Source: Eledone cirrhosa (lineage: Eukaryota). From it: DNA of 64,000 bases. The position numbers and the translations under genes were made by a program. Numbering within the stretch: the stretch's first letter is position 1; every line of letters begins with the position of its first letter. Positions 2,830 to 52,411 of the stretch are shown piece by piece. Under the pieces are notes generated by a model. The model had not been told where the DNA came from. It was given only the letters and a program-made list of their open reading frames with translations, and did no database searches. The DNA lies in assembly GCA_964016885.1 (NCBI GenBank), contig OZ024741.1:351974001-352038000 (forward strand). The letters are read 5' to 3'.

Positions 2830-3840
2830 GCCCTATCCATAAAGGGGGAAGCAGAGCAGAGGCTAAAAATTACAGGCCAGTCTCCCAGTAAGGTCATGGA
2901 ACGAATCATCAGATAGAAACTGATCATGCTCTCAAGGAAAATGATCGCCTAACTAACACTCAGCATCACTTTTGCCCAAGAAGAAGCTGTCTTGCACAGC
3001 TTTTACAACACTACGACTGAGTACTGAAACAAGTGCTGGGCAGCTCACATATGGACGTGATAGTCCTTCAAAACGGTCGACCATGGAATGATATGTCAAA
3101 AACTACACAAACTTTGCATAACTGGAAAAGTATGTGAGTGGCTGCATGACTTCTTAAAAGACAGAAGCCAGATTGTTGCAGCTAACGGGGCCCTCTCAAA
3201 AGAAATGTAAATAACAAGCGGTGTGCCCCAGGGCACAGTCTTGGGACCTTGACTGTTTTTGGTGGCTCTTTCAGACATGCCCTCTGTAGTACATACATCT
3301 CTCACTAGCTATCCTGGTGACACAAAGGTACCACAAGCAATCAAGAACCCGGCTGATGCTACTCTTTTGCAACAAGATCTGGATGCCATATACAAATGGG
3401 CTGAGGGCAATTTAATGCTGGAAAATTTCAAGCCCTACAATATCAACCTGCTAACACAACCTGGGTACAGACATGAGCAATGATGCATTGTTTTTTTCAC
3501 ACATCATGAGAGTGGTGAAAATGTGCAGACGATTTGCTGGCTGGAGCTTGAGGACTTTCAGGACAAGAGACTGAGAGACCATATTGGTACTATGAAGGAC
3601 ATTTGTTCTGAGCCGACTGGACTATTGCTCCCAACTGTGGTCACCCCAGAGTGTCAAACTAACCATGGAGCTTGAAGCAATCCAACGAAGCTACACCAAC
3701 AGAACTGCCACGATGAAGGCAATGAGCTACTGGAAGAGGCTAAAAGAACTAAAACTCTACTCCTTGGAATGAAGGCAGGAAAGATATGCAGTGATATACA
3801 TATGGAAGATCCTGGAGAGACTAGCACCAAACTTTGATGT
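2830..3840 (+). mobile_element. CR1/Jockey-group LINE reverse-transcriptase fragment (decayed)
   Basis: Frameshifted motifs NYRPVS, SGVPQGTVLGP and LQQDLDAIYKWAE. Confidence 0.8.
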
Positions 3841-4138
3841 ATTCCACCAGAGGCGCCCCAAAAATCTTTAACTTATCTTGACAAGACAAAATAATCAATG
3901 AAGAAGTCTATGGTAGAACCAATCAAAACCCATTAAGCATCACAGTGAAAGATCATCAACTGAGATTTCTTGGACATGTCTTTAAAATGTTATCTCCTTT
4001 AACTGGAAGCTAGAAGGTGGAAAAAGGAAACATGAGTGCCCATTAACAAAATGCAGAGGTCAGTCCTGAAGGATTTAGATGCAGATCTTTTGTTGCTGCC
4101 CAATGTTCCACATGGAATGTGAGGATCTAACTAACACT

Positions 4139-4667
<529 letters not shown>

Positions 4668-8142: not shown

Positions 8143-9224
8143 TATATATATATCTTAATTTTATTATAGACTAGAACTGTTTCTTTCATAAAAATATATA
8201 TCTACATACATTATTTTACATGCACACACACGCACACACATATACATATATATACACACATTTTTTCTTAGCAATTCATTATCACATCATTGTCATTATC
8301 ATAATCATTAAGAAAACTTTTTCTAATTCCATTGTGCGCTGTTTATCAACTTGTGTCTTATATAACATTATCATTATCAGGCTAATTAATTATCAATTAG
8401 AAATGGTAAGTGCACTAAACTAAATATTATCAATATGATTTTACATTTACTTTACATATTAGCATGGGTTGGATGGGTTGTCACAATCTGTGACTAGACA
8501 GGTCAAAGAAACCTAATCTTGTTCATATGTTCCATATTTTTCTATGGCTGGACACGTCTTCCTAACGCCAGCCATCTTACAGAGTGCCACTAGTTGCATT
8601 TTATTGGGGCATCAGCATTTTTATCACCCTTCCTATCACCAACCACTTTACAGAGTGTACTGGGTAGCACTATATTTCCTTTTTGCCCTTAGTCCTTATG
8701 TTCTGCATAGAAGAGGGCAATTTTATCTTCTTTTCCTCTGTTATTACATTTCACACCTATGTAGGTTTAGCTGGCCTCTTATGAGGTTGCATCTCGCAGG
8801 TCTTTTGGGTTATTTAATGATAGACATTCACACAATCATGTTTCTTTACCCTTGGTGTCAATAAATTCCTTTCATTTTTTTTTAAATTGGAAATACTGGT
8901 GCCATGATAAAATGCATCCAGTATACTCTGTAAAGTGGTAGTACTGTTGTGATGATAACTACACCCAGTACACTTTTTAAAGTGGTAATGCTAGTGTCGG
9001 ATAAATACACCTATATCACCATTATCAACACCACTATCAACATTACCCCCACCACCATCAACATTAGCAGCATTAACATCACTAATCTTAATGCCTGAAT
9101 ATCTTCCATCACACAAACCAGTGTAAAGACCACCCTCTCTCCAAAACAGATGCCCCCTAAGTTGAAATCATTCATGCATAACTTGAGAAAAGGAGGGGGT
9201 CCAACCCAGCTAGAAAGCTGTGAA

Positions 9225-24522: not shown

Positions 24523-26052
24523 TATCATCATCATCGTTTAACGTCAATATTCCACGCTTGCATGGGTCTGGACGGGAGTTTTCCCACTTGAGGCAAGAGT
24601 GGTTGTCTTGCTCGCATAGGACTGTCTGGCGGGTTTTCTACGGCTGGATGCCCTTCCTAACACCAACCACATTTACAGTGTGGAACTGGGAGGTTTTTAC
24701 CGTGTTACCTACACGGCCACATTACAGCGTGGACTGTGCGTTTTTTTTGTCGTGACACCTACACGACCTCATTTGTTTCGGGCTGGATGTTGTGACACCA
24801 ACATAACTTTACATTGAAAGGGGTGGTGTGGATGGGGTGTGGGTAGTGGGACGGGGGTGTATTGTGTTAGAGGTGCCTACTGACTGTAGTAGGGTTCACT
24901 TTGTACTTAGGTAAGGCGAGTCTTCTCTATTACTGTGTAGCGCCAAATACCTCGGTCCAGTGACATTGTCTTGGAAAGGTGTAAGTGTGTGAGGTCGGAA
25001 TTTATCAAGTCGTCCCAGGTTTTTCTGGGTCTGCCTACTCCGTGGCTACTGTCTATTTTTATTGCCCTGCACTTTTTTATACAGCTGTCCTCTTTCATAC
25101 GCATCACGTGACCATACCAACGTAGTCTTCTCTCGAGTAAACAACATCTGATCCCTCTTATTTCTAATTTCTCCCTTAGTACGTTTATGCTTTGCCGTTC
25201 ACGTATATTACTATTACACATCCAGCGGAGCATGCAAGCTTCATTTCTCTCCAGTCTGCGTATATCCTCTGCACACAATGCCCAGGTCTCACTGCCATGT
25301 AACATTGATGTTCGTATGCAGGCATCATACAGCCTGCCTTTCATTTTTAGAGAGAACTCTTTAGCGGCCAATAGTGGTATAAGCTCTCTGAACTTTTTCC
25401 ATCCAGTTCTGACTCTAGCTACTGTACTTTCAGAGCACCCTCCCCCACTGCTGATTTTATCACCCAGGTAACAGAAGCTGTCCACTATTTCTATAGAACC
25501 ATCTGCGCAATTGAAAGAGCTAGTATTTTGTTGGCACTTGCTGCTACTTATTGCACCAGAGCACCGGCCACATGTAAAAATCTATGTTCTTAGTTAGCTT
25601 ACCTGTGATCCCACTACATCTTTTATGTACCCATACTTTGCATTTGGGACATAAAATGGAGTTTCTACCTACTCCTTTCCTACACACTGAGCATGGCCAT
25701 TTCCCAGATGGGACCGGTGCCCTATTTTCCTTCCTACAAACTAGAACTTTAGTCTTAGACAAGTTAACTTTAAGGCCTTTTGATTCTAGGCCATGCTTCC
25801 ATGTTTGGAATTTCTTCTCTAGTTCAGCCATTGATTCAGCTATGAGCGTTAGATCATCTCCATATAGGAGTTCCCATGGGCAGCTGGTCTTGAACTCCTC
25901 TGTTATAGCCTGAAGGGCAATAATAAATAGTAGGGGGCTAAGGACGGAGCCTTGATGAACACCAACATTTACGCTAAACTCTTCACTATATTCGTTGCTA
26001 ATTCTAACCTTGCTGACTGTTTCTTTATACATGGCTTCTATAGCTCTCACAA
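24523..26052 (-). mobile_element. RTE LINE, 5'-truncated
   Basis: GVHQGSVLSPLLF, YGDD, PHD-like CSVC..C..C..WVHKRC, YLG, GRPRKTW; (gat)n tail. Confidence 0.95.
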
Positions 26053-26497
26053 TATACATACTACTGTACGTCTGTATACATATATGTATGTACGTATACT
26101 TACTTATATTTAAGTAACAGCCGTACTAAGAGTGAGAAATGAAATTTTGTTTCGTTTCATCATTTTGTTTCGTTTCATTTTTTTTCCGTTTATCGTTTTC
26201 GGCACGCCGGCCGTGTAACTCACTCGATATGCAAATTAGGCTGCTCAGCCGTTAATATGCATAAGGAAAGTATATACTTTCAGACGTTCCATCATCTGGC
26301 AGGAAGGTATACGTTGATGACGATAGCTAATAAGCTTGAAACTAGTACAGCGTTCCTTTGTCAGTGTTGAACAAATGAGAAACATGGTTGCTAGACACTG
26401 TGCGGCTTAATTCGGGATGTTTGTTTACAAACACACCGAGCATTATAATAAATGTTCGGTGAATCTATACATACATATATATATGTGTGCATGTATG
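26053..26497 (+). mobile_element. Retrozyme-like monomer with mutated hammerhead core
   Basis: Same unit as 28230-28670; core reads aTGACGA at 26317-26323. Confidence 0.75.
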
Positions 26498-28226
26498 TCA
26501 TCATCATCATCATCGTTTAACGTCCATCTTCCACGCTTGCATGGGTTTGGACGGGAGTTTTCACACTTGAGGCTAAAGTGGTTGTCTTGCTCGCATAGGA
26601 CTGTCTGGCGGGTTTTCTACGGCTGGATACCCTTCCTAACACCAACCACGTTTACAGTGTAGACTGGGAGGTTTTTACCGTGTTACCTACATGGCCACAT
26701 TACAGCGTGGACAGTGTGTTTTTTTGTCGTGACACCTACACAACCTCATTTGTTTCGGACTGGTACCAACATAACTTTACATTGAAAAAGGTGGTGTGGA
26801 TGGGGTGGGGGTAGTGAGACGGGGGTGTATTTTTGTTATAGGTGCCTACTGACTGTAGTAGGTTTTACATTGTACTTAGGTAAGGCGGGTCTTCTGTATT
26901 ACTGTGTAGCGCCAAATATCTCGGTCCAGTGACATTGTCTTGGAGAGGTGTAAGTGTGTGAGGTCGGAATTTATCAAGTCGTCCCAGGTTTTTCTGGGTC
27001 TGCCTACTCCGTGGCTATTGTCTATTTTTTATTGCCCTGCACTTTTTTATACAGCTGTCGTTTTTCATGCGCATCACGTGTCCATACCAACGTAGTCTTC
27101 TCTCAAGTAAACAACATCCGATCCCGCTTATTTCTAATTTTTCCCTTAGTTCGTTTATGCCTTGCCGTTTACGTATATTACAATTACACATCCAGCGGAG
27201 CATGCAAGCTTCGTTCCTCTCCAGTCTGTGTATATCCTCTGCACACAATGCCCAGGTCTCACTGCCATGTAACATTGTTGTTCGTATGCAGGCATCATAC
27301 AGCCTGCCTTTCATTTTTAGAGAGAACCCTTTAGCGGCTAAAAGTGGTATAAGCTCTCTGAACTTTTTCCATCCAGTTCTGACTCTAGCTACTGTACTTT
27401 CAGAGCACCCTCCACCACTGCTGATTTTGTCACCCAAGTAACGGAAGCTGTCCACTATTTCTATAGAACCATCTGTGCAATGGAATGAGCTAGTATTCTG
27501 TGGTCACTTGCTGCTACTTATTGCACCAGAGCACCGGCCACATATAAAATCTATATTCTTAGTTAGCTTACCTGTGATCCCACTACATCTTTTATGCACC
27601 CATACTTTGCATTTGGGACATAAAATGGAGTTTCTGCCTACTCCTTTCCTACACACTGAGCATAGTCATTTCTCAGATGGGACCGGTGCCCTATTTTCCT
27701 TCCTACAAACTAGAACTTTAGTCTTAGACAGGTTAATTTTAAGGCCTTTTGATTCTAGGCCATGCTTCCATGTTTGGAATTTCTTCTCTAGTTCAGCCAT
27801 TGATTCAGCTATCAGTGTTAGATCATCTGCGTATAGGAGTTCCCATGGGCAGCCGGTCTTGAACTCCTCTGTTATAGCCTGAAGGGCAATAATAAATAGT
27901 AGGGGGCTAAGAACGGAGCCCTGATGAACACCAACTTTTACGCTAAACTCGTCACTATATTCGTTAATTCTAACCTTGCTGACTGTTTCTTTATACATGG
28001 CTTGTATAGCTCTCACAAGCCATTCATAACATCTAGTTTTCTAAGAGCCCACCAGATAATGGAGCGGGGGACTCTGTCAAAGGCTTTCTCCAAGTCAACA
28101 AAAGCTAAGTATAGGGGTTTACTTTTAGCTAGGTACTTCTCCTGTAGTTGTCATACAATGAAAAGAGCGTCTGTGGTACTTTTACCTGACACAAACCCGA
28201 ACTGCATTTCATCTAGATCAATTCGC
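26498..28226 (-). mobile_element. RTE LINE, 5'-truncated (longer copy)
   Basis: FVDLEKAFDRVP, GVHQGSVLSP, YADD; similar to 24523-26052 but with different lesions. Confidence 0.95.
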
Positions 28227-28790
28227 TATACATACTACTGTACGTCTGTATACATATATGTATGTACGTATACTTACTTATATTTAAGTAACAGCCGTAC
28301 TAAGAGTGAGAAATGAAATTTTGTTTCATTTCGTTTCATTTTTTTTCCGTTTATCTTTCTCGGCACGCCCGGCCGAGTAACTCACTCGATATGCAAATTA
28401 GGCTGCTCAGCCGTTAATATGCATAAGGAAAGTATATACTTTCAGACGTTCAATCATCTGGCAGGAAGCTATACGTTGCTGACGATAGCTAATAAGCTTG
28501 AAACTAGTACAGCGTTCCTTTGTCAGTGTTGAACAAATGAGCAACGATGGTTGCTAGACACTGTGCGGCTTAATTCAGGATGTTTGTTTACAAACACACC
28601 GAGCATTATAATAAATGTTTGGTGAATCCATACGTACATATATATATGTGTGCATGTATGTATATATATATACATACTACTGTACGTCTGTATACATATA
28701 TGTATGTACGTATACTTACTTATATTTAAGTAACAGCCGTACTAAGAGTGAGAAATGAAATTTCGTTTCGTTTCATTTTTTTTCCGTTTA
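28227..28790 (+). mobile_element. Retrozyme-like unit of about 1.3 monomers with terminal direct repeat
   Basis: ~120-bp direct repeat (28230-28350 and 28672-28790) flanks an intact hammerhead core. Confidence 0.8.
28474..28514 (+). ncRNA. Minimal type I hammerhead ribozyme
   Basis: cgttg-CTGACGA-tagctaataagctt-GAAA-ctag-TA-cagcg; palindromic stem III ACTAGT; predicted cut after GUA (28509); stem II closed by U-U instead of G-C. Confidence 0.8.
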
Positions 28791-29330: not shown

Positions 29331-29867
29331 TTTAATATAACTTTCTTTTCCTCTTCTTCCTGTTGGTTATTTCAAACCTTTTTATAAATACTTTCATTAA
29401 TAATAAATTTATATATTAATAAAAATAAGGGGTGGGGGATGATACGACTAGTAAGGATGGGTGTGACATAGAGAGAGTGAGTGTATGTGTGTGTGAAAAA
29501 AAGAGAATGTGTGATTGAGACAGAGAGTGACTGAGGAAGTGAGAAAGAGATGAGAAATCACTGACATACAACAACAAATGCATCTTGACCTTCCATTGAA
29601 CTCTTCTAAAACATCTCACTGTTGACAGGCTTCATCACACACACTAACACACACACATGGACATACATACACCCATTATACATATATGTAAAAACTTGGT
29701 GTACCAAACTAGTGGACACTGACACACATTACAACTTCATAACCTCACATTACACTACTAACCTTAAAGAATATATACATATACAACCTTCAAAAATCGA
29801 TTGCGAATCTACTATTCGCAGCTGCAACTTTGGTTATACTCATTATTTTATATATATATATATATAT

Positions 29868-30472
29868 ATATTGTTATATTTGGGGAGGGTCATATTTGCG
29901 TAATATTGCCAGAATTAATAACAGAACACACTCACTGTTTGGTTGGTTTTCGCTTCTCGCTGTCTTTTATATATATATATCTGCGATCTAACTTACTCGG
30001 TCCTCAATGTTGCCATTGACTGACCGGCGGTCAAAAATAATACAGATACAATATAGACAAACACATATATATATAGTTTACATAATTTACATAAATCTTT
30101 CGTTGCACATCTGCAACATCGTCAGTGGTGTTATATTCATTGTTCCTCCTGTTGTGTTGTATGTCTACGCCATTTTTTTTGTTCCCAACAGGAGGAACAA
30201 TGAATATAACACCACTGACGATGTTGCAGATGTGCAACGAAAGATTTATGTAAATTATGTAAACTATATATATATGTGTTTGTCTATATTGTATCTGTAT
30301 TATTTTTGACCGCCGGTCAGTCAATGGCAACATTGAGGACCGAGTAAGTTAGATCGCAGATATATATATATAAAAGACAGCGAGAAGCGAAAACCAACCA
30401 AACAGTGAGTGTGTTCTGTTATTAATTCTGGCAATATTACGCAAATATGACCCTCCCCAAATATAACAATAT
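29868..30472. repeat. Long inverted repeat (287-bp arms, 31-bp spacer) with a hammerhead motif in each arm
   Basis: 29868-30154 is the reverse complement of 30186-30472, with no mismatch seen by eye. Hammerhead ca-CTGACGA-t-gttgca gatg tgcaac-GAAA-gatt-TA-tg at 30211-30251 (+), mirrored at 30089-30129 (-). Confidence 0.93.
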
Positions 30473-30526
30473 CTGTTTCGACACACGATTTCATATAAAA
30501 AACCTCGCAAAACTAATTCATCGCCG

Positions 30527-30579
<53 letters not shown>

Positions 30580-31142
30580 GAAAATCTGCTTCGTAGAATC
30601 AAGACGTATCTGAGGCCCTTGCGATTTTCAGAGTCAGGTTCGATCATCACATCGATCGTGCCTCGAGCTGGTCGCCAGAGAAACGATTGTAATATGTCCA
30701 ATAAATTCCATTCGTCGCAACACTGATTCTCTTTTTTCTGTGATATCTACTATATAAATTGGAAGTGGTCGGACGTTGTATATTTAAGTAAGTAAGTGTA
30801 GTCGGATAAACGTCGAAACGGCTTCGTGGAATGCAGCGAAAATTTAAACAGTTATGCAGAATTTTAGGGTACAAACTTCCATGGTTACGGAGAAAATCGA
30901 TGAAACAGGAATTTCCCATTCAGATTGAACTGAGAGTAATCTGTGAATGCAGAAGTAAATATTTCGAGAAACGTTCCAACTGAACGAAAACAGGAAGACG
31001 ATATTTTGGTTCATGAAGACGTTCCCTGGCAATGAATGGAAAAGAAAGCGAGGATAATACGTCGTTATGTGGACCGAGAAGAACAATTTCATGCAAAGAT
31101 AAGACCAAGGTTATGGTATAAATGGAGTCGTTAGACTAATAT

Positions 31143-31782
31143 TCTATTTAACATAACAGAATGATTTCCAGCGCGGGAGTTTAAGAATGATGTAAATAAA
31201 ATTTAAAATGAAAATGACAGAGGTTATTAAAATAGTAAATAGTGAAGATTTAGGCCAGTACATACGTATGCCCCGACGGACATACACATACATACGCACA
31301 CACAAATACATACCCCCCCCCCCCCACACACAAACGAGCGCGCGCGTGTATAAACCTTATGCATTTCTACAGTATTTTCACCAAACTTAAGACATAGGTT
31401 ACTTATGTACTCCGGATGGTCATGGGCACTTTCATTTTTCCAGATATTGATTATAGGGCCTCCCGGCAGATAACCCCCTTTAACCACTTTCTTGGAGTCC
31501 ACTGAAGCACTGCAGTGCAATGCAACAAAACGTCATAACTTCTGGAGTTCGCAACCGATTTTCACAAAACTTGACACATGGGCTACGTTTGTCCTACAGA
31601 TGAATGTGAACTCTCAGAATTGGCACATATTGAGTAGGGGACCCCTGGGGGCAGGAACCCTCTTTTGGGAAAACCCGATGATTTTGTAAAAGTATAGTTT
31701 TCAAAGTAGCACTGAAGTATTGACATAAATGGTATACACAACTGCTATTTAATACCCGAGCAACGCCGGGTACCTCTGCTAG
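31143..31782 (+). mobile_element. Non-autonomous Helitron-like element
   Basis: 3' hairpin acccgagcaacgccgggt then acctctgCTAG|T; 5' boundary approximate. Confidence 0.65.
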
Positions 31783-32496: not shown

Positions 32497-33150
32497 AATG
32501 GAAAAAATGAAACAAAATTTCATTTCTCACTCTTAGTACGGCTGTTACTTAAATATAAGTATGTATACGTACATACATATATGTATACAGACGTACAGTA
32601 GTTTGTATATATATATACATACATGCACACATATATATATGTACGTATGGATTTACCGAACATTTATTATAATGCTCGGTTTGTTTGTAAACAAACATCC
32701 CGGATTAAGCCGTACAGTGTTTAGCAACCATCGTTGCCCTTTTGTTCAACGCTGACAAAGGAACGATGTACTAGTTTCAAGCTTATTAGCTATCGTCAGC
32801 ACCGTATACCTTCCTGCCAGATGATTGAATGTCTGAAAGTATATACTTTCCTTATGCATATTAACAGCTGAGCAGCCTAATTTGCATATCGAGTGAGTTA
32901 ATCGGCCAGGCGCACCGAAAACGATAAATGGAAAAAATGAAATGAAATTTCATTTCTCACTCTTAGTACGGCTGTTACTTAAATATAAGTATGTATAAGT
33001 ATGTATACGTACATACATATATTGTTTACAAACAAACCGAGCATTATAAGAAACGTTCGGTAAATCCATACGTACATATATATATGTGTGCATGTATGTA
33101 TATATATACATATTACTGTACGTGTATATACATATATGTATGTACATATA
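32497..33150 (-). mobile_element. Retrozyme-like unit: partial tandem plus inverted tail
   Basis: Monomer restarts at ~32927 and inverts at ~33020; intact hammerhead core at 32764-32804 on the minus strand. Confidence 0.8.
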
Positions 33151-45975: not shown

Positions 45976-48297
45976 CTATCTATCTAGGGCGGGTAAAATT
46001 CCTGAGATCCATGGACGAGGTCTCTCCAGCGGTCTCTGTCCCTCATTATCGCTGCCATGTCCTGCGTCTCCAACAGACCAGTGTCTGTCCTTAGGGCATC
46101 AACATACATTAACCTTGGTCTTCCTCTTCCAGTTTGTCCATGCAGGGGATCCCACAGGAGCACTGAGTGCAATGTCAACTCTGGATGTCGGTCTCCTCTG
46201 TGTCACTTTTGAGCTGACTTTTGGGAGGCTCCCATACAGCTCTGAGTTTTTCATCCTCAATACTGATTAATGTTCAGAGTCATCCTCAGCATTCTCGTGT
46301 GGCACCCATCCACCATCTGAGTGAGTTTCTTGGTCAGTGTCCAAGTCTCAGACCCGTACAGCAGCACAGACTCCACTACAGCAATAAAGAGGCGGATCTT
46401 CAGGTCTTCACGAAGGTCCGACTTCCACACCGATCGGGGAAGATGTGGACCTACATCTCAGATATGTACCTGTCCAAGTCCCAGATTGATTTCATTTTGG
46501 TGAGGAAAAAGTGGCGGAATAGTGTTCTGAACACAGAACCATACAACTATTTCAGTACACTGAGTAGTGACCACCGGCTTGTTATGAGTGAGGTCCGGAT
46601 GAGCTTAAGAAAGAGCAAGGCTCGGCCCCAGAGAGCAATCTATGACTGGGGAGCTTTCAAGGAAGATGATAAGCTACAGGAGAGGTTCACAGTGGAAGTG
46701 AAGAACAGGTTCAGTGCTCTGTGTGGAGAGACAGAGGAGAGAGAGATTGGATGGACTGAGGAGAGTGTGATGAGGAGGTATGGGTACTTCACCAATGCAG
46801 TGGCGGAAGCAAGTGAGACCCTGGTGCCAAGGAGAAAGAACAAAAGGAACCACGTCAGCTCTGCAGACCCAAAAGTGTGTGCAGCCAGAGAACACCTGAA
46901 AGCTGCCAAGAACCAATTCTATGCTGATCCTACGGAAGAGAGGAAGGAGAATGTGGAAGTGATGAGGAAAGAACTCTGTACTGCTTACACTGAGGCCAGA
47001 GAGGAGGCACTGATAGAGAAGATCAGAAGTGTGGAGAGAGCAGTTGGCAGGTCTGGATGTAAGGAGAGCTGGATGATCATCAACAAGATGACAGGGTGGA
47101 AGAGAAGGTGTTCGAGTCAGATCCAGGGAACAGGGCCCGAGGATAGGAAGGGGAAATGGCTAGATCATTTTAGGACCCTACTAGGAGAGCCGCCCTCCAC
47201 AGCCAAGAACACTGGGGAGATCAGGCGGCTGTTTGAAGAACTGGATATTGAGACAGAGCCCTTCACCAGAGAGGAGCTTCAGAGAGCCAAGAAGAAAATC
47301 AAGGAGGGCAAGGCTCATGGAAAAGATGGAGTAGCATCAGAGGTGATGAAGAGGTGTGATTTTGATGATATCATCCTCAGGTTCTGTAACCAGGCACTGG
47401 AGAAGGGAGTTGCCCCGAATCAGTGGAGGATCAGTAACATCGTCCCAGTGCCAAAGAAGGGAAATCTCTCTAACACCAACAACTACAGGGGGATCTCACT
47501 GACGTCACTTATGGCAAAGACCCTCAACAGGATGATTCTTAACAGGATCCAGCCCGATATGGAGAAGAAGCTCAGGGACAACCAGAACAGCTTCAGAGAG
47601 GGAAGATCAACCACCAGGCACATCCTGATGCTGAGGAGGATATTAGAGGGAGCTAGAGCAAAGTGCCTTTCTGCGGTCATGGTTTTCATTGACTTTAGGA
47701 AGGCCTTGGATTCTGTGGACCGTCACTACCTGAAGAACATCTTACAGGCTTATCGAATCCCCAAGAAGATAGTGGACCTGATATCACTGCTCTACACCAA
47801 CACCAAAGCCCAAGTCATTACACCTGATGAGATGACAGAGTTCTTTGAGATATTGGCTGGAGTGCTCCAGGGAGATACATTGGCTCCCTACCTTTTTATC
47901 ATCGTAGTGGACTATTGTATGCACCTTGCACTGGAGAAACACCAGGACTCTGGCTTTACTGTAACACCGGCTCAGAGCAGAAGAGTTAAGGCGAAAAAGA
48001 TATCGGATGCTGAATTTGCCGACGACATAGTTTTGGTGACAAATACAGTGAAGGAGGCAGAGGATTTGATGCAGGAAGTTGAGACTGTGTCGATGAGTGT
48101 GGGCTGAGAATGAATGAGACTAAGACAAAATGTCTGGTAGAGAATGTTGAGAAGCCAGAGGGGATTACTAATGTAGGCGGGAAGCCGCTGGAATTAGTTG
48201 AGGACTTCCTGTATTTGGGAGCAAAGATTGGGAATACGGAAGATGATGTGGTTGGGAGGAAGAGCAAAGCCTGGGCGGTGTGCCACAGCTTGAGATC
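45976..48297 (-). mobile_element. RTE-group LINE insertion with inverted 5' part and 12-bp TSD
   Basis: Plus part 46436-48297: SQIDFILVRKKWR, SDHRLV, DFRKALDSV, GVLQGDTLAPYLF, FADD. Minus part 45976-46435 carries the C-terminus. TSD ggatttagtaat at 45964-45975 and 48298-48309. Confidence 0.92.
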
Positions 48298-50016: not shown

Positions 50017-50639
50017 TTAAATCATTAAATATACAGTTTTGGTAAACTTACTAGTGAGAGACAACACTAACAATTGAAAGCTGGTAGGTATGAATGTTGA
50101 CATGACTTCCATTCCAGATGCAATCCATTATATGTTGGAATCAACTGGGATAAGACATAATTGTTCACCTCCTCATAGTTCAAATGTAATTCTACCATGT
50201 AATTAGCTAATTTTTTATATAACATTATATAACATCATCTCATTATGATTTAATTAATGGGCTAATGATGAAGCTTCTACATGGACACTAGACCTGCTAG
50301 AAATAACAACAAAATATCAACTCTTGATTTATCAGAGCATATATAAAATAGGTTTGTTAATTCAAATGTCTACAGTGTCTTTACTATGGACAGATTGTTG
50401 TGAAAGTCTGCTGTAAATTGAAGTAACAATTTTAAAATATTTAATATAATGCAGTGATATTTTGTACATTTTGGACATTATATTTGAAAATGCAATCTAG
50501 GACAAACTGTGAGAAGATGGGATGGTCAGTATTAGAATACCTGTTTGACGAGGGCAGCCCTGAAGCTAAACAACAACTCAAATTAGATTAGCATTTTTGT
50601 TGTTCTTTGAAACCTTTGATTTATTTACACAGAATGTGT

Positions 50640-52411
50640 CACAAATGATCAAAAGAAGGAGGCCTGGAAATGTCACTATGAGAGACTGATGAATGTGGAG
50701 AACGAATGGGAGAGAGAGAAATTACCCCCAGTAGACCCGACAGAGGGACCAGCTATTGAGATTGACAAATATAGGGTACAAGAGGCAATTAAGGAAATGA
50801 AGAATGGTAAGGCTGCTGGACCGTCGGGGATAGTTGCTGAGATGCTGAAGGCACCAGGAGAAGTAGGCACTAAACTGGTTGCATGCATCATCAATCAAGC
50901 TATATATGGTGGTGTCCTACCCAAAGACTGGTGCAGCAGTATTCTCATAAATTACTACAAAGGTAAAGGGGATGCTCTAGAGAGGAGCAATTATAGGGGC
51001 ATAAAGCTGATGGATCAGGTTATGAAAGTGGCAGAGAGAACATTAGTGCAACTGATTAGAGAAAGGGTTAAATTAGATGAGATGCAGTTTGGTTTTGTGC
51101 CTCGGAAAAGTACAACAGATGCCCTCTTCTTAGTGAGGGAACTACAAGAGAAGTTCTTAGAGAAGAATAAGCCACTATACTTAGCTTTTGTTGACCTAGA
51201 GAAGGCCTTTGATAGCGTACCCCAATCTGTCATCTGGTGGTCCCTAAGGAAACTAGGTGTAGAGGAATGGCTTGTGTGGACAGTGCAAGCTATGTACAGG
51301 GGTACTCTCAGTAAAGTCAGGGTAGGTATGGAGTTTAGTGAGGAATTCCAGATACAAGTAGGTGTACATCAGGGTTCGGTCCTCAGCCCGCTCTTGTTCA
51401 TTATAGTCCTCCAAGCCATAACAGAGGAGTTTAAGACTGGATGCCCATGGGAATTTCTCTATGCTGATGATCTGGTTCTTATAGCAGAATCAGTAGAGGA
51501 GCTAGAGAATAAATTCTGGCTATGGAAACAGCAGTTGGAATCAAGGGACTGAGAGTGAACATAGCTAAGACAAAAGTGTTGATAAGTAGAAGAGAGGACA
51601 ATACTCTGATTCCATCAGGGAAATGGCCATGTTCGATATGTAGGAAAGGAACTGGCATAAATTCCATATAATGTACGCAATGCAGATCTTGGGTACACAA
51701 GAGATGTAGTGGGATAGCAGGCAAACTAACAGGTAAGGAAAACTACGCATGCAGTAGATGTACAGGGAAAGTTGGCAGTAGTAATCGCAGTGATAGACAC
51801 ATTTTTCCAATGCAGGTGAGTTCTATAGAAGTGGTTGATAGCTTCTGGTACCGAGGTGATCAGATTAGCATGGGAAGGGGTGTTCCGACCCCACAGTATC
51901 TAGAATAAGGATGGGTTGGAAGAAGTTTAGGGAGCTGCTTCCTCTGTTGACAAAGAAGGGTTTCTCCCTGCGTACGAAAGGACAGTTATATGATGCCTGT
52001 GTGAGATGCGCGATGCTGCATGGTAGTGACATGGGCAGCAACTGCAGAGGATATGAGACGGCTGGAGAGAAATGAAGCAAGTATGCTCCGTTGGATGTGC
52101 AAAATGGGTATAAGAGGGATAAGTTGTGGTGTGCAGGAGAGAAGGCTGAGATGGTATGGACATGTGATGCGCATAGAGGATACCGCTGGGTAAAGAAGTG
52201 CCAAGAAATCCCAGTAGAAGGAAGACGCAGTAGAAGTAGACCATGAAAAACATGGGCGGAGGTGGTGAGAATAGACCTCGGATCGCTGAAACTCACCGAG
52301 GAGATGACGAAGGACCGTGACAAGTGGAGAGATGCTGTGCTGAATAGGACCCGTCCAAACCTTGTAAGCAGGGAAAAGCGTACGTAAAATGATGATGATG
52401 ATGATGATGAT
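50640..52411 (+). mobile_element. RTE LINE, 5'-truncated
   Basis: GKAAGPSG, NYRGIKL, FVDLEKAFD, GVHQGSVLSP, YADD; (gat)n tail at 52389-52411. Confidence 0.95.

Follow-up and report, generated by a model that had tools for sequence, protein, structure and literature searches.

The insertion at 29868–30530 of the window, the whole 64,000-nt stretch of Eledone cirrhosa DNA analysed here, is a dead, doubly 5′-truncated, head-to-head copy of an abundant autonomous Penelope-like retrotransposon; its identity as a Penelope-like insertion is close to certain. Its likely origin is coupled two-site target-primed reverse transcription, a reading drawn only from the end products of integration. Dead copies of this kind number in the thousands, and the value of the present one is as an entry to a family survey. 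A young family with more than 10,000 copies offers a rule that can be counted and, for the origin of inverted arms with a one-sided tail, a direct test in vitro. The inverted arms, the one-sided tail and opposite-strand hammerhead pairs have each been published already.

Two inverted arms of 287 nt (29868–30154 and 30186–30472) are 100% complementary and lie 31 nt apart, with (TA)n target tracts on the left (29850–29867) and on the right (30528–30576, 24.5 copies); the perfect inverted repeat with a 31-bp spacer inside (TA)n, reported in a preliminary description of this DNA, is therefore confirmed. A natural 4,147-bp unit from loci L042–L043 served as the ruler for arm coordinates, and on it both arms are 3′ pieces of the element facing outward into (TA)n. 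The short-ended arm (29868–30184, minus strand) is a 5′-truncated copy of reference 3783–4089, and the tailed arm (30186–30530, plus strand) a 5′-truncated copy of reference 3812–4147. The spacer is thus upstream element sequence: 30 of its 31 bases match the element upstream of the arm and were kept by the left arm, and the last, a C at 30185, appears to be a junction base with no template in the reference copy. Only the right arm has a tail (30473–30530, plus strand; reference 4090–4147; alternative, inner end at 30515, corresponding to reference 4132), so that one arm ends at 4089 and the other at 4132 or 4147. The first 28 codons of the element ORF occupy 30447–30530 on the plus strand, the ORF of full-length copies opening with identical sequence, and the tail comprises codons 10–28. 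The right-only position of the tail had been described correctly; its length is ~58 nt, not the 20 nt quoted.

The insertion site is a repeat pile-up around (TA)n tracts. The right flank of the insertion point (30577–30738) is the 3′ end of a second Penelope-like family, the segments 29783–29846 and 30743–31240 are the ends of two further repeat families adjoining the insertion, and the whole is enclosed by a 433-nt inverted repeat (28341–28773 and 32505–32937, 94% complementary, 3.7 kb apart). No empty site was found with the flanks as query; the two flanks come from separate repeat families. An assembly or library fold-back artefact would fit the perfection of the arms, and no piece spanning the junction was present among contigs and a 1% Hi-C sample, an uninformative comparison. 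However, the sequences on either side are unlike, only one end has a tail, and the layout recurs, with arms that have diverged, at dozens of loci in two families; one short-read contig (run X1) with an opposite-strand joint of the main family weakly points the same way, and we consider an artefact extremely improbable.

The parent element is present at high copy number. Exact matches to a 30-nt hammerhead pattern number 10,074 across the 3.0-Gb genome, against 0 for the reversed control, and those to a 3′ marker of the element number 11,189. Three tandem 4,147-bp units with an inverted truncated copy were found at L042–L043, and tandem or partial-tandem copies forming pseudo-LTRs, again with an inverted 5′-truncated copy, occur at further loci. 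Read by eye, the unit encodes a reverse transcriptase (RT), then a CX4CxxC linker and C-terminal GIY-YIG-type motifs. Its coding region is split into 559 and 675 aa in the L042–L043 copies, and L047 has an unbroken 1,130-aa frame containing the CX4CxxC linker, two Cys within the GIY-YIG core and two later His. The Penelope origin that had been proposed for the arms is upheld. In the available part of PMC8557442, Neptune and Nematis are defined by a CX2-5CxxC linker before GIY-YIG plus a CCHH motif; judged from its sequence, the parent falls within this definition by its linker motif, which does not separate the two clades. A Pfam search of the parent ORF returned RVT_1 at E=1e-4, below the cut-off, and no GIY-YIG; the nearest ESM clusters were RT/GIY-YIG at 0.96–0.97, and NCBIfam and PDB searches gave no useful match. 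At L047 (2643–6035), a long Asn-rich stretch precedes the RT and is reminiscent of the N-rich inserts found in rotifer Penelope elements.

The window junction sequence occurs once in the 3.0-Gb genome, and the insertion is thus a one-off truncated copy and not a member of an amplified foldback family. Of 46 other arms, 8 match the arm of the window insertion at every one of 279 columns, so that perfect arms need no special mechanism, and the youth earlier attributed to the insertion stands. Identical arms also occur in L047 and L054 despite kilobase inner parts. A non-autonomous foldback or MITE-like family moving as a palindromic unit could invoke one near twin of equal size, L053, but the L053 junction differs, L053 is the sole other insertion as compact as that of the window (2 of 53 pairs in all), and spacers across the surveyed pairs reach kilobases. 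MITE- or retrozyme-type amplification of the window unit, at many loci or in tandem, was not seen, the junction being found once. For this junction the single occurrence refutes such a family, barring copies concealed in unassembled DNA; the family deserves very little credence, and the non-autonomous status given in the preliminary description is not supported, since a 1,130-aa open frame is present among the closest relatives of the insertion.

The arrangement of ends was surveyed in the main family at the first 100 places listed for three patterns (all on contig C1) together with BLAST-picked loci, so the counts below refer to sampled, pattern-anchored loci, nearly all from contig C1. This gave 79 head-to-head junction records, of which 25 were left out (21 interrupted or with an internal end, 4 cut by the locus edge); the 54 readable junctions bear out the expectation that other copies would be inverted too. 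With the short site defined as reference 4078–4096 and the tailed site as 4124 or beyond, 53 of the 54, window included, combine one short and one tailed end; a tailed+tailed pair was seen once (L167) and a short+short pair never, an excess of short+tailed pairs over free choice of ends with p=6e-15. Tails measure 43–58 nt and have two outer ends (4132 or 4147), and TA-rich flanks are present on both sides in 51 of 54. Of the junctions, 30 overlap by 1–10 nt, 3 are blunt, 13 contain 1–13 added bases and 8 contain a longer addition. Two complete hammerheads are present in 19 of the 53 short+tailed insertions. The exceptional L167 insertion (290–1930), the sole one with a tail on both arms, has a junction that recurs ~9.5 kb off in L058. 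At L172 (3471–4563), four tandem ~290-bp tail-plus-arm units of the main family have one shared junction.

The second Penelope-like family, whose 3′ end abuts the insertion, has 1,791 candidates at ~98% identity with a 78-nt tail and is also young; at L206 it retains a frame with RT plus a GIY-YIG-type domain. In a sample of 27 loci, 8 of them chosen for listed opposite-strand pairs, all 12 readable head-to-head junctions were short+tailed. Three loci (L219, L223 and L224) were unreadable and left out; at L224 both arms bear the tail sequence, but the second continues into non-TA sequence.

Coupled two-site priming would generate these products as follows. A (TA)n tract would be cut on both strands by the element protein, probably a dimer. 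From one target strand, cDNA synthesis would start at the tailed site; from the other, it would start at the short site, 43–58 nt upstream, with both cDNAs probably templated by one RNA. The tail-primed cDNA would stall near the short site or continue over the same template; both cDNAs would stop early, and their 3′ ends would be joined via an overlap of 0–10 nt or a few added bases. In the window, both would have stopped just upstream of the hammerhead, which would leave two ribozyme copies and a 31-nt loop. If this is correct, inverted arms and a one-sided tail are explained in one step, replacing the self-priming and endonuclease-trimming proposals, and there is one fixed start site per target strand, with tail-primed cDNAs stalling at the other priming site.

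The preliminary description had favoured snap-back reverse transcription. In a self-priming model of this type, one cDNA or antisense RNA folds back and copies itself, and an endonuclease then trims one end. Self-priming of this kind was proposed, in the part of PMC3846280 (Arkhipova et al. 2013) available, from palindromes at inverted junctions, and endonuclease resolution of the tail was suggested in PMC8557442, likewise available in part. Three insertions among the 53 pairs (L053, L104 and L183) are clean hairpins in which both arms begin at the same base, and the arms of one insertion tend to resemble each other, their mutual distance falling below the median for other arms in 28 of 33 pairs; both this resemblance and the junction overlaps are compatible with self-priming and, equally, with two-site priming. 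However, the window tail cannot derive from the other arm, because the tailed arm is shorter at its 5′ end, and the short-ended arm is the 5′-longer one in 30 of 53 insertions, window included (in 20 the tailed arm is the longer, and in 3 the two are equal). Moreover, 15 of the 53 tailed arms begin at 4061–4091 and have little or no overlap with the other arm (mean start 4079 for those ending at 4132, n=10, and 4078 for those ending at 4147, n=5), and at four further loci tailed arms of 13–17 nt stop at 4131–4134 without overlap with the other arm. Such arms cannot be copies of one another, and two-site priming accounts both for them and for the single tail per insertion. Start sites reported in vitro also coincide with both tail ends (PMC11167929, available in part). 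Self-priming is in our view unlikely.

Two-site priming is itself weakened by several observations: the three clean hairpins look like self-priming products; one tailed+tailed insertion exists; 25 of 79 records are unclassed in a pattern-anchored sample drawn nearly entirely from contig C1; the two arms resemble each other no more than unrelated copies do in 5 of 33 pairs; and the accessible part of PMC11167929 saw no difference in start sites between strands and scored no single insertions. The kilobase-long arm overlaps of L047 and L051 would need strand displacement, tandem RNA or two RNAs. In a variant, each subunit of an asymmetric dimer would have an RNA molecule of its own, and the two RNAs would be primed separately, one per target strand. 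The stops near 4080 and 4132 would then be due to RNA structure or bound protein rather than to collision on one RNA. This variant would explain the kilobase overlaps (L047, L051 and L054) without strand displacement, as well as the five pairs with unlike arms. By itself, however, it leaves the pile-up of tailed arms at the other priming site unexplained, and most arm pairs are close relatives, though one source locus would yield the same; we regard it as quite unlikely. We retain coupled priming as the likely origin of the window insertion, and give about even chances to the broader proposition that the one-tail rule holds almost strictly in these two unrelated families, with asymmetric twin priming by a dimer on one RNA as the normal route of integration. 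A fixed arm start at reference 3812, hinted at by BLAST-picked loci, was rejected: 0 of 216 pattern-sampled arms begin at 3805–3819, and 18 of 216 begin at 3775–3804, where an A-run of varying length blurs the position.

Each arm contains a predicted minimal hammerhead motif (30092–30125, minus strand; 30215–30248, plus strand), and the two cores CUGACGA, at 30125–30119 (minus) and 30215–30221 (plus), both read outward, in agreement with the preliminary description. In each arm, CUGACGA is followed by an unpaired U, a 6-bp helix II (GUUGCA/GAUG/UGCAAC, at 30223–30238 in the right arm) and then GAAAGAUUUA (30239–30248 in the right arm), where the predicted cut falls after 30248. The minimal type I core (CUGANGA...GAAA...UH, helix II, G10.1-C11.1) is present. 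Rfam returned no hammerhead family at the insertion, neither at gathering score nor at E≤10, and the call is for this reason based on the core motif and the published minimal-hammerhead layout, activity being predicted from these. The register described earlier, in which helix I has 2 bp, helix III is palindromic and the cut follows 30248, agrees with the minimal form in the literature and is kept across subfamilies. CUGAYGA is retained in 160 and helix II in 164 of 178 sampled copies, figures that are not independent because the sample was chosen by that motif. Helix II hardly varies, and helix III differs between subfamilies with A-U and G-U/G-C pairs retained.

Folding predicts a weak ribozyme. 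The dimer duplex reaches only −2.0 kcal/mol, and in the subfamily of the window insertion 10 nt are duplicated following the predicted cut, a marker with 2,720 exact matches in the genome; this duplication is predicted to form a competing hairpin over helix III. As RNA, the whole element folds to a 287-bp duplex of −516 kcal/mol in which the hammerhead helices are lost, so that the masking of the ribozyme proposed in the preliminary description is also what folding predicts. If such hairpins are transcribed, they would yield long double-stranded RNA. The hammerheads are probably passengers of the pseudo-LTR. A truncation hot spot at the hammerhead cut site was rejected: 7 of 216 arms begin at 3860–3884 with no clear peak near the cut, and L104 is the single clean locus at which both arms begin at the predicted cut. 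This L104 insertion (8255–8711) is a zero-spacer palindrome that may have been copied from an RNA already cleaved. The fold gave no support to a further candidate hammerhead in the tail, on its minus strand.

The accessible part of PMC4209133 describes minimal hammerheads in the pseudo-LTRs of metazoan Penelope-like elements, with low activity in vitro, and reports dual motifs on opposite strands, 100–700 bp apart, in Schistosoma. The window motif shares with these minimal forms the unpaired base after A9, G10.1-C11.1 and the 6-bp helix II, and with the D. virilis motif in the same source the 2-bp helix I and small palindromic helix III; the 10-nt duplication sets the window subfamily apart from the hammerheads described there. 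Inverted 5′-truncated copies of EN+ Penelope-like elements, with a 30–40-bp tail often at one end only, are described in PMC8557442, and in PMC3846280, which covers Pen2a_Av, the tail is the ORF start, both sources being partly available. To that extent, canonical C-terminal EN+ elements and the Eledone family have in common the inverted pseudo-LTR arms, the one-end tail formed by the ORF start, the pseudo-LTR hammerhead, AT-rich or (TA)n targets and an Asn-rich ORF stretch, whereas the Eledone tail is 43–58 nt with two outer ends rather than 30–40 nt. The window insertion further differs from canonical elements in that its arms are too short to leave a coding body and no target duplication is readable in (TA)n.

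According to the available part of PMC11167929, a lizard Penelope-like protein, Poseidon from Anolis (PAc), cuts and extends both strands in vitro from two start sites bounding the tail, is a predicted dimer, and does not require hammerhead cleavage in vitro. Poseidon PAc and the Eledone family share two RT start sites within the ORF start and an AT-rich target; unlike PAc, the Eledone family has a CX4CxxC linker of Neptune/Nematis type. The pairing of site and strand within one insertion is not reported in that part of the source. The proposed Eledone mechanism resembles LINE-1 twin priming (PMC2837659; 10.1101/2024.12.14.628481) in the head-to-head joining of two target-primed cDNAs made on opposite strands. 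In the literature covered, neither twin priming applied to Penelope-like elements nor a per-insertion tail count was found; older papers and supplements, such as Fig. S2 of PMC11167929, may hold them.

Among 60 frames of at least 100 aa in the window, no host gene was recognised by eye, the only recognisable pieces being LINE-like RT. L1 twin priming occurs now and then and uses an internal site that varies, whereas in the Eledone family both sites are fixed and the product is common, often duplicating sequence. No RNA run is among the public runs listed for 29880–30520; the 16 runs, under 12 organism or metagenome labels, share at least 0.2 of its words, and three of them (X4, X5 and X7) contain near-identical pieces of it. 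LINE-like RT fragments were recognised by eye at 24907–28040, 46218–48107 and 50620–51552 of the window, and tRNA-like hits, two of them identical, at 136–199, 4336–4393 and 54745–54808 are probably SINE heads.
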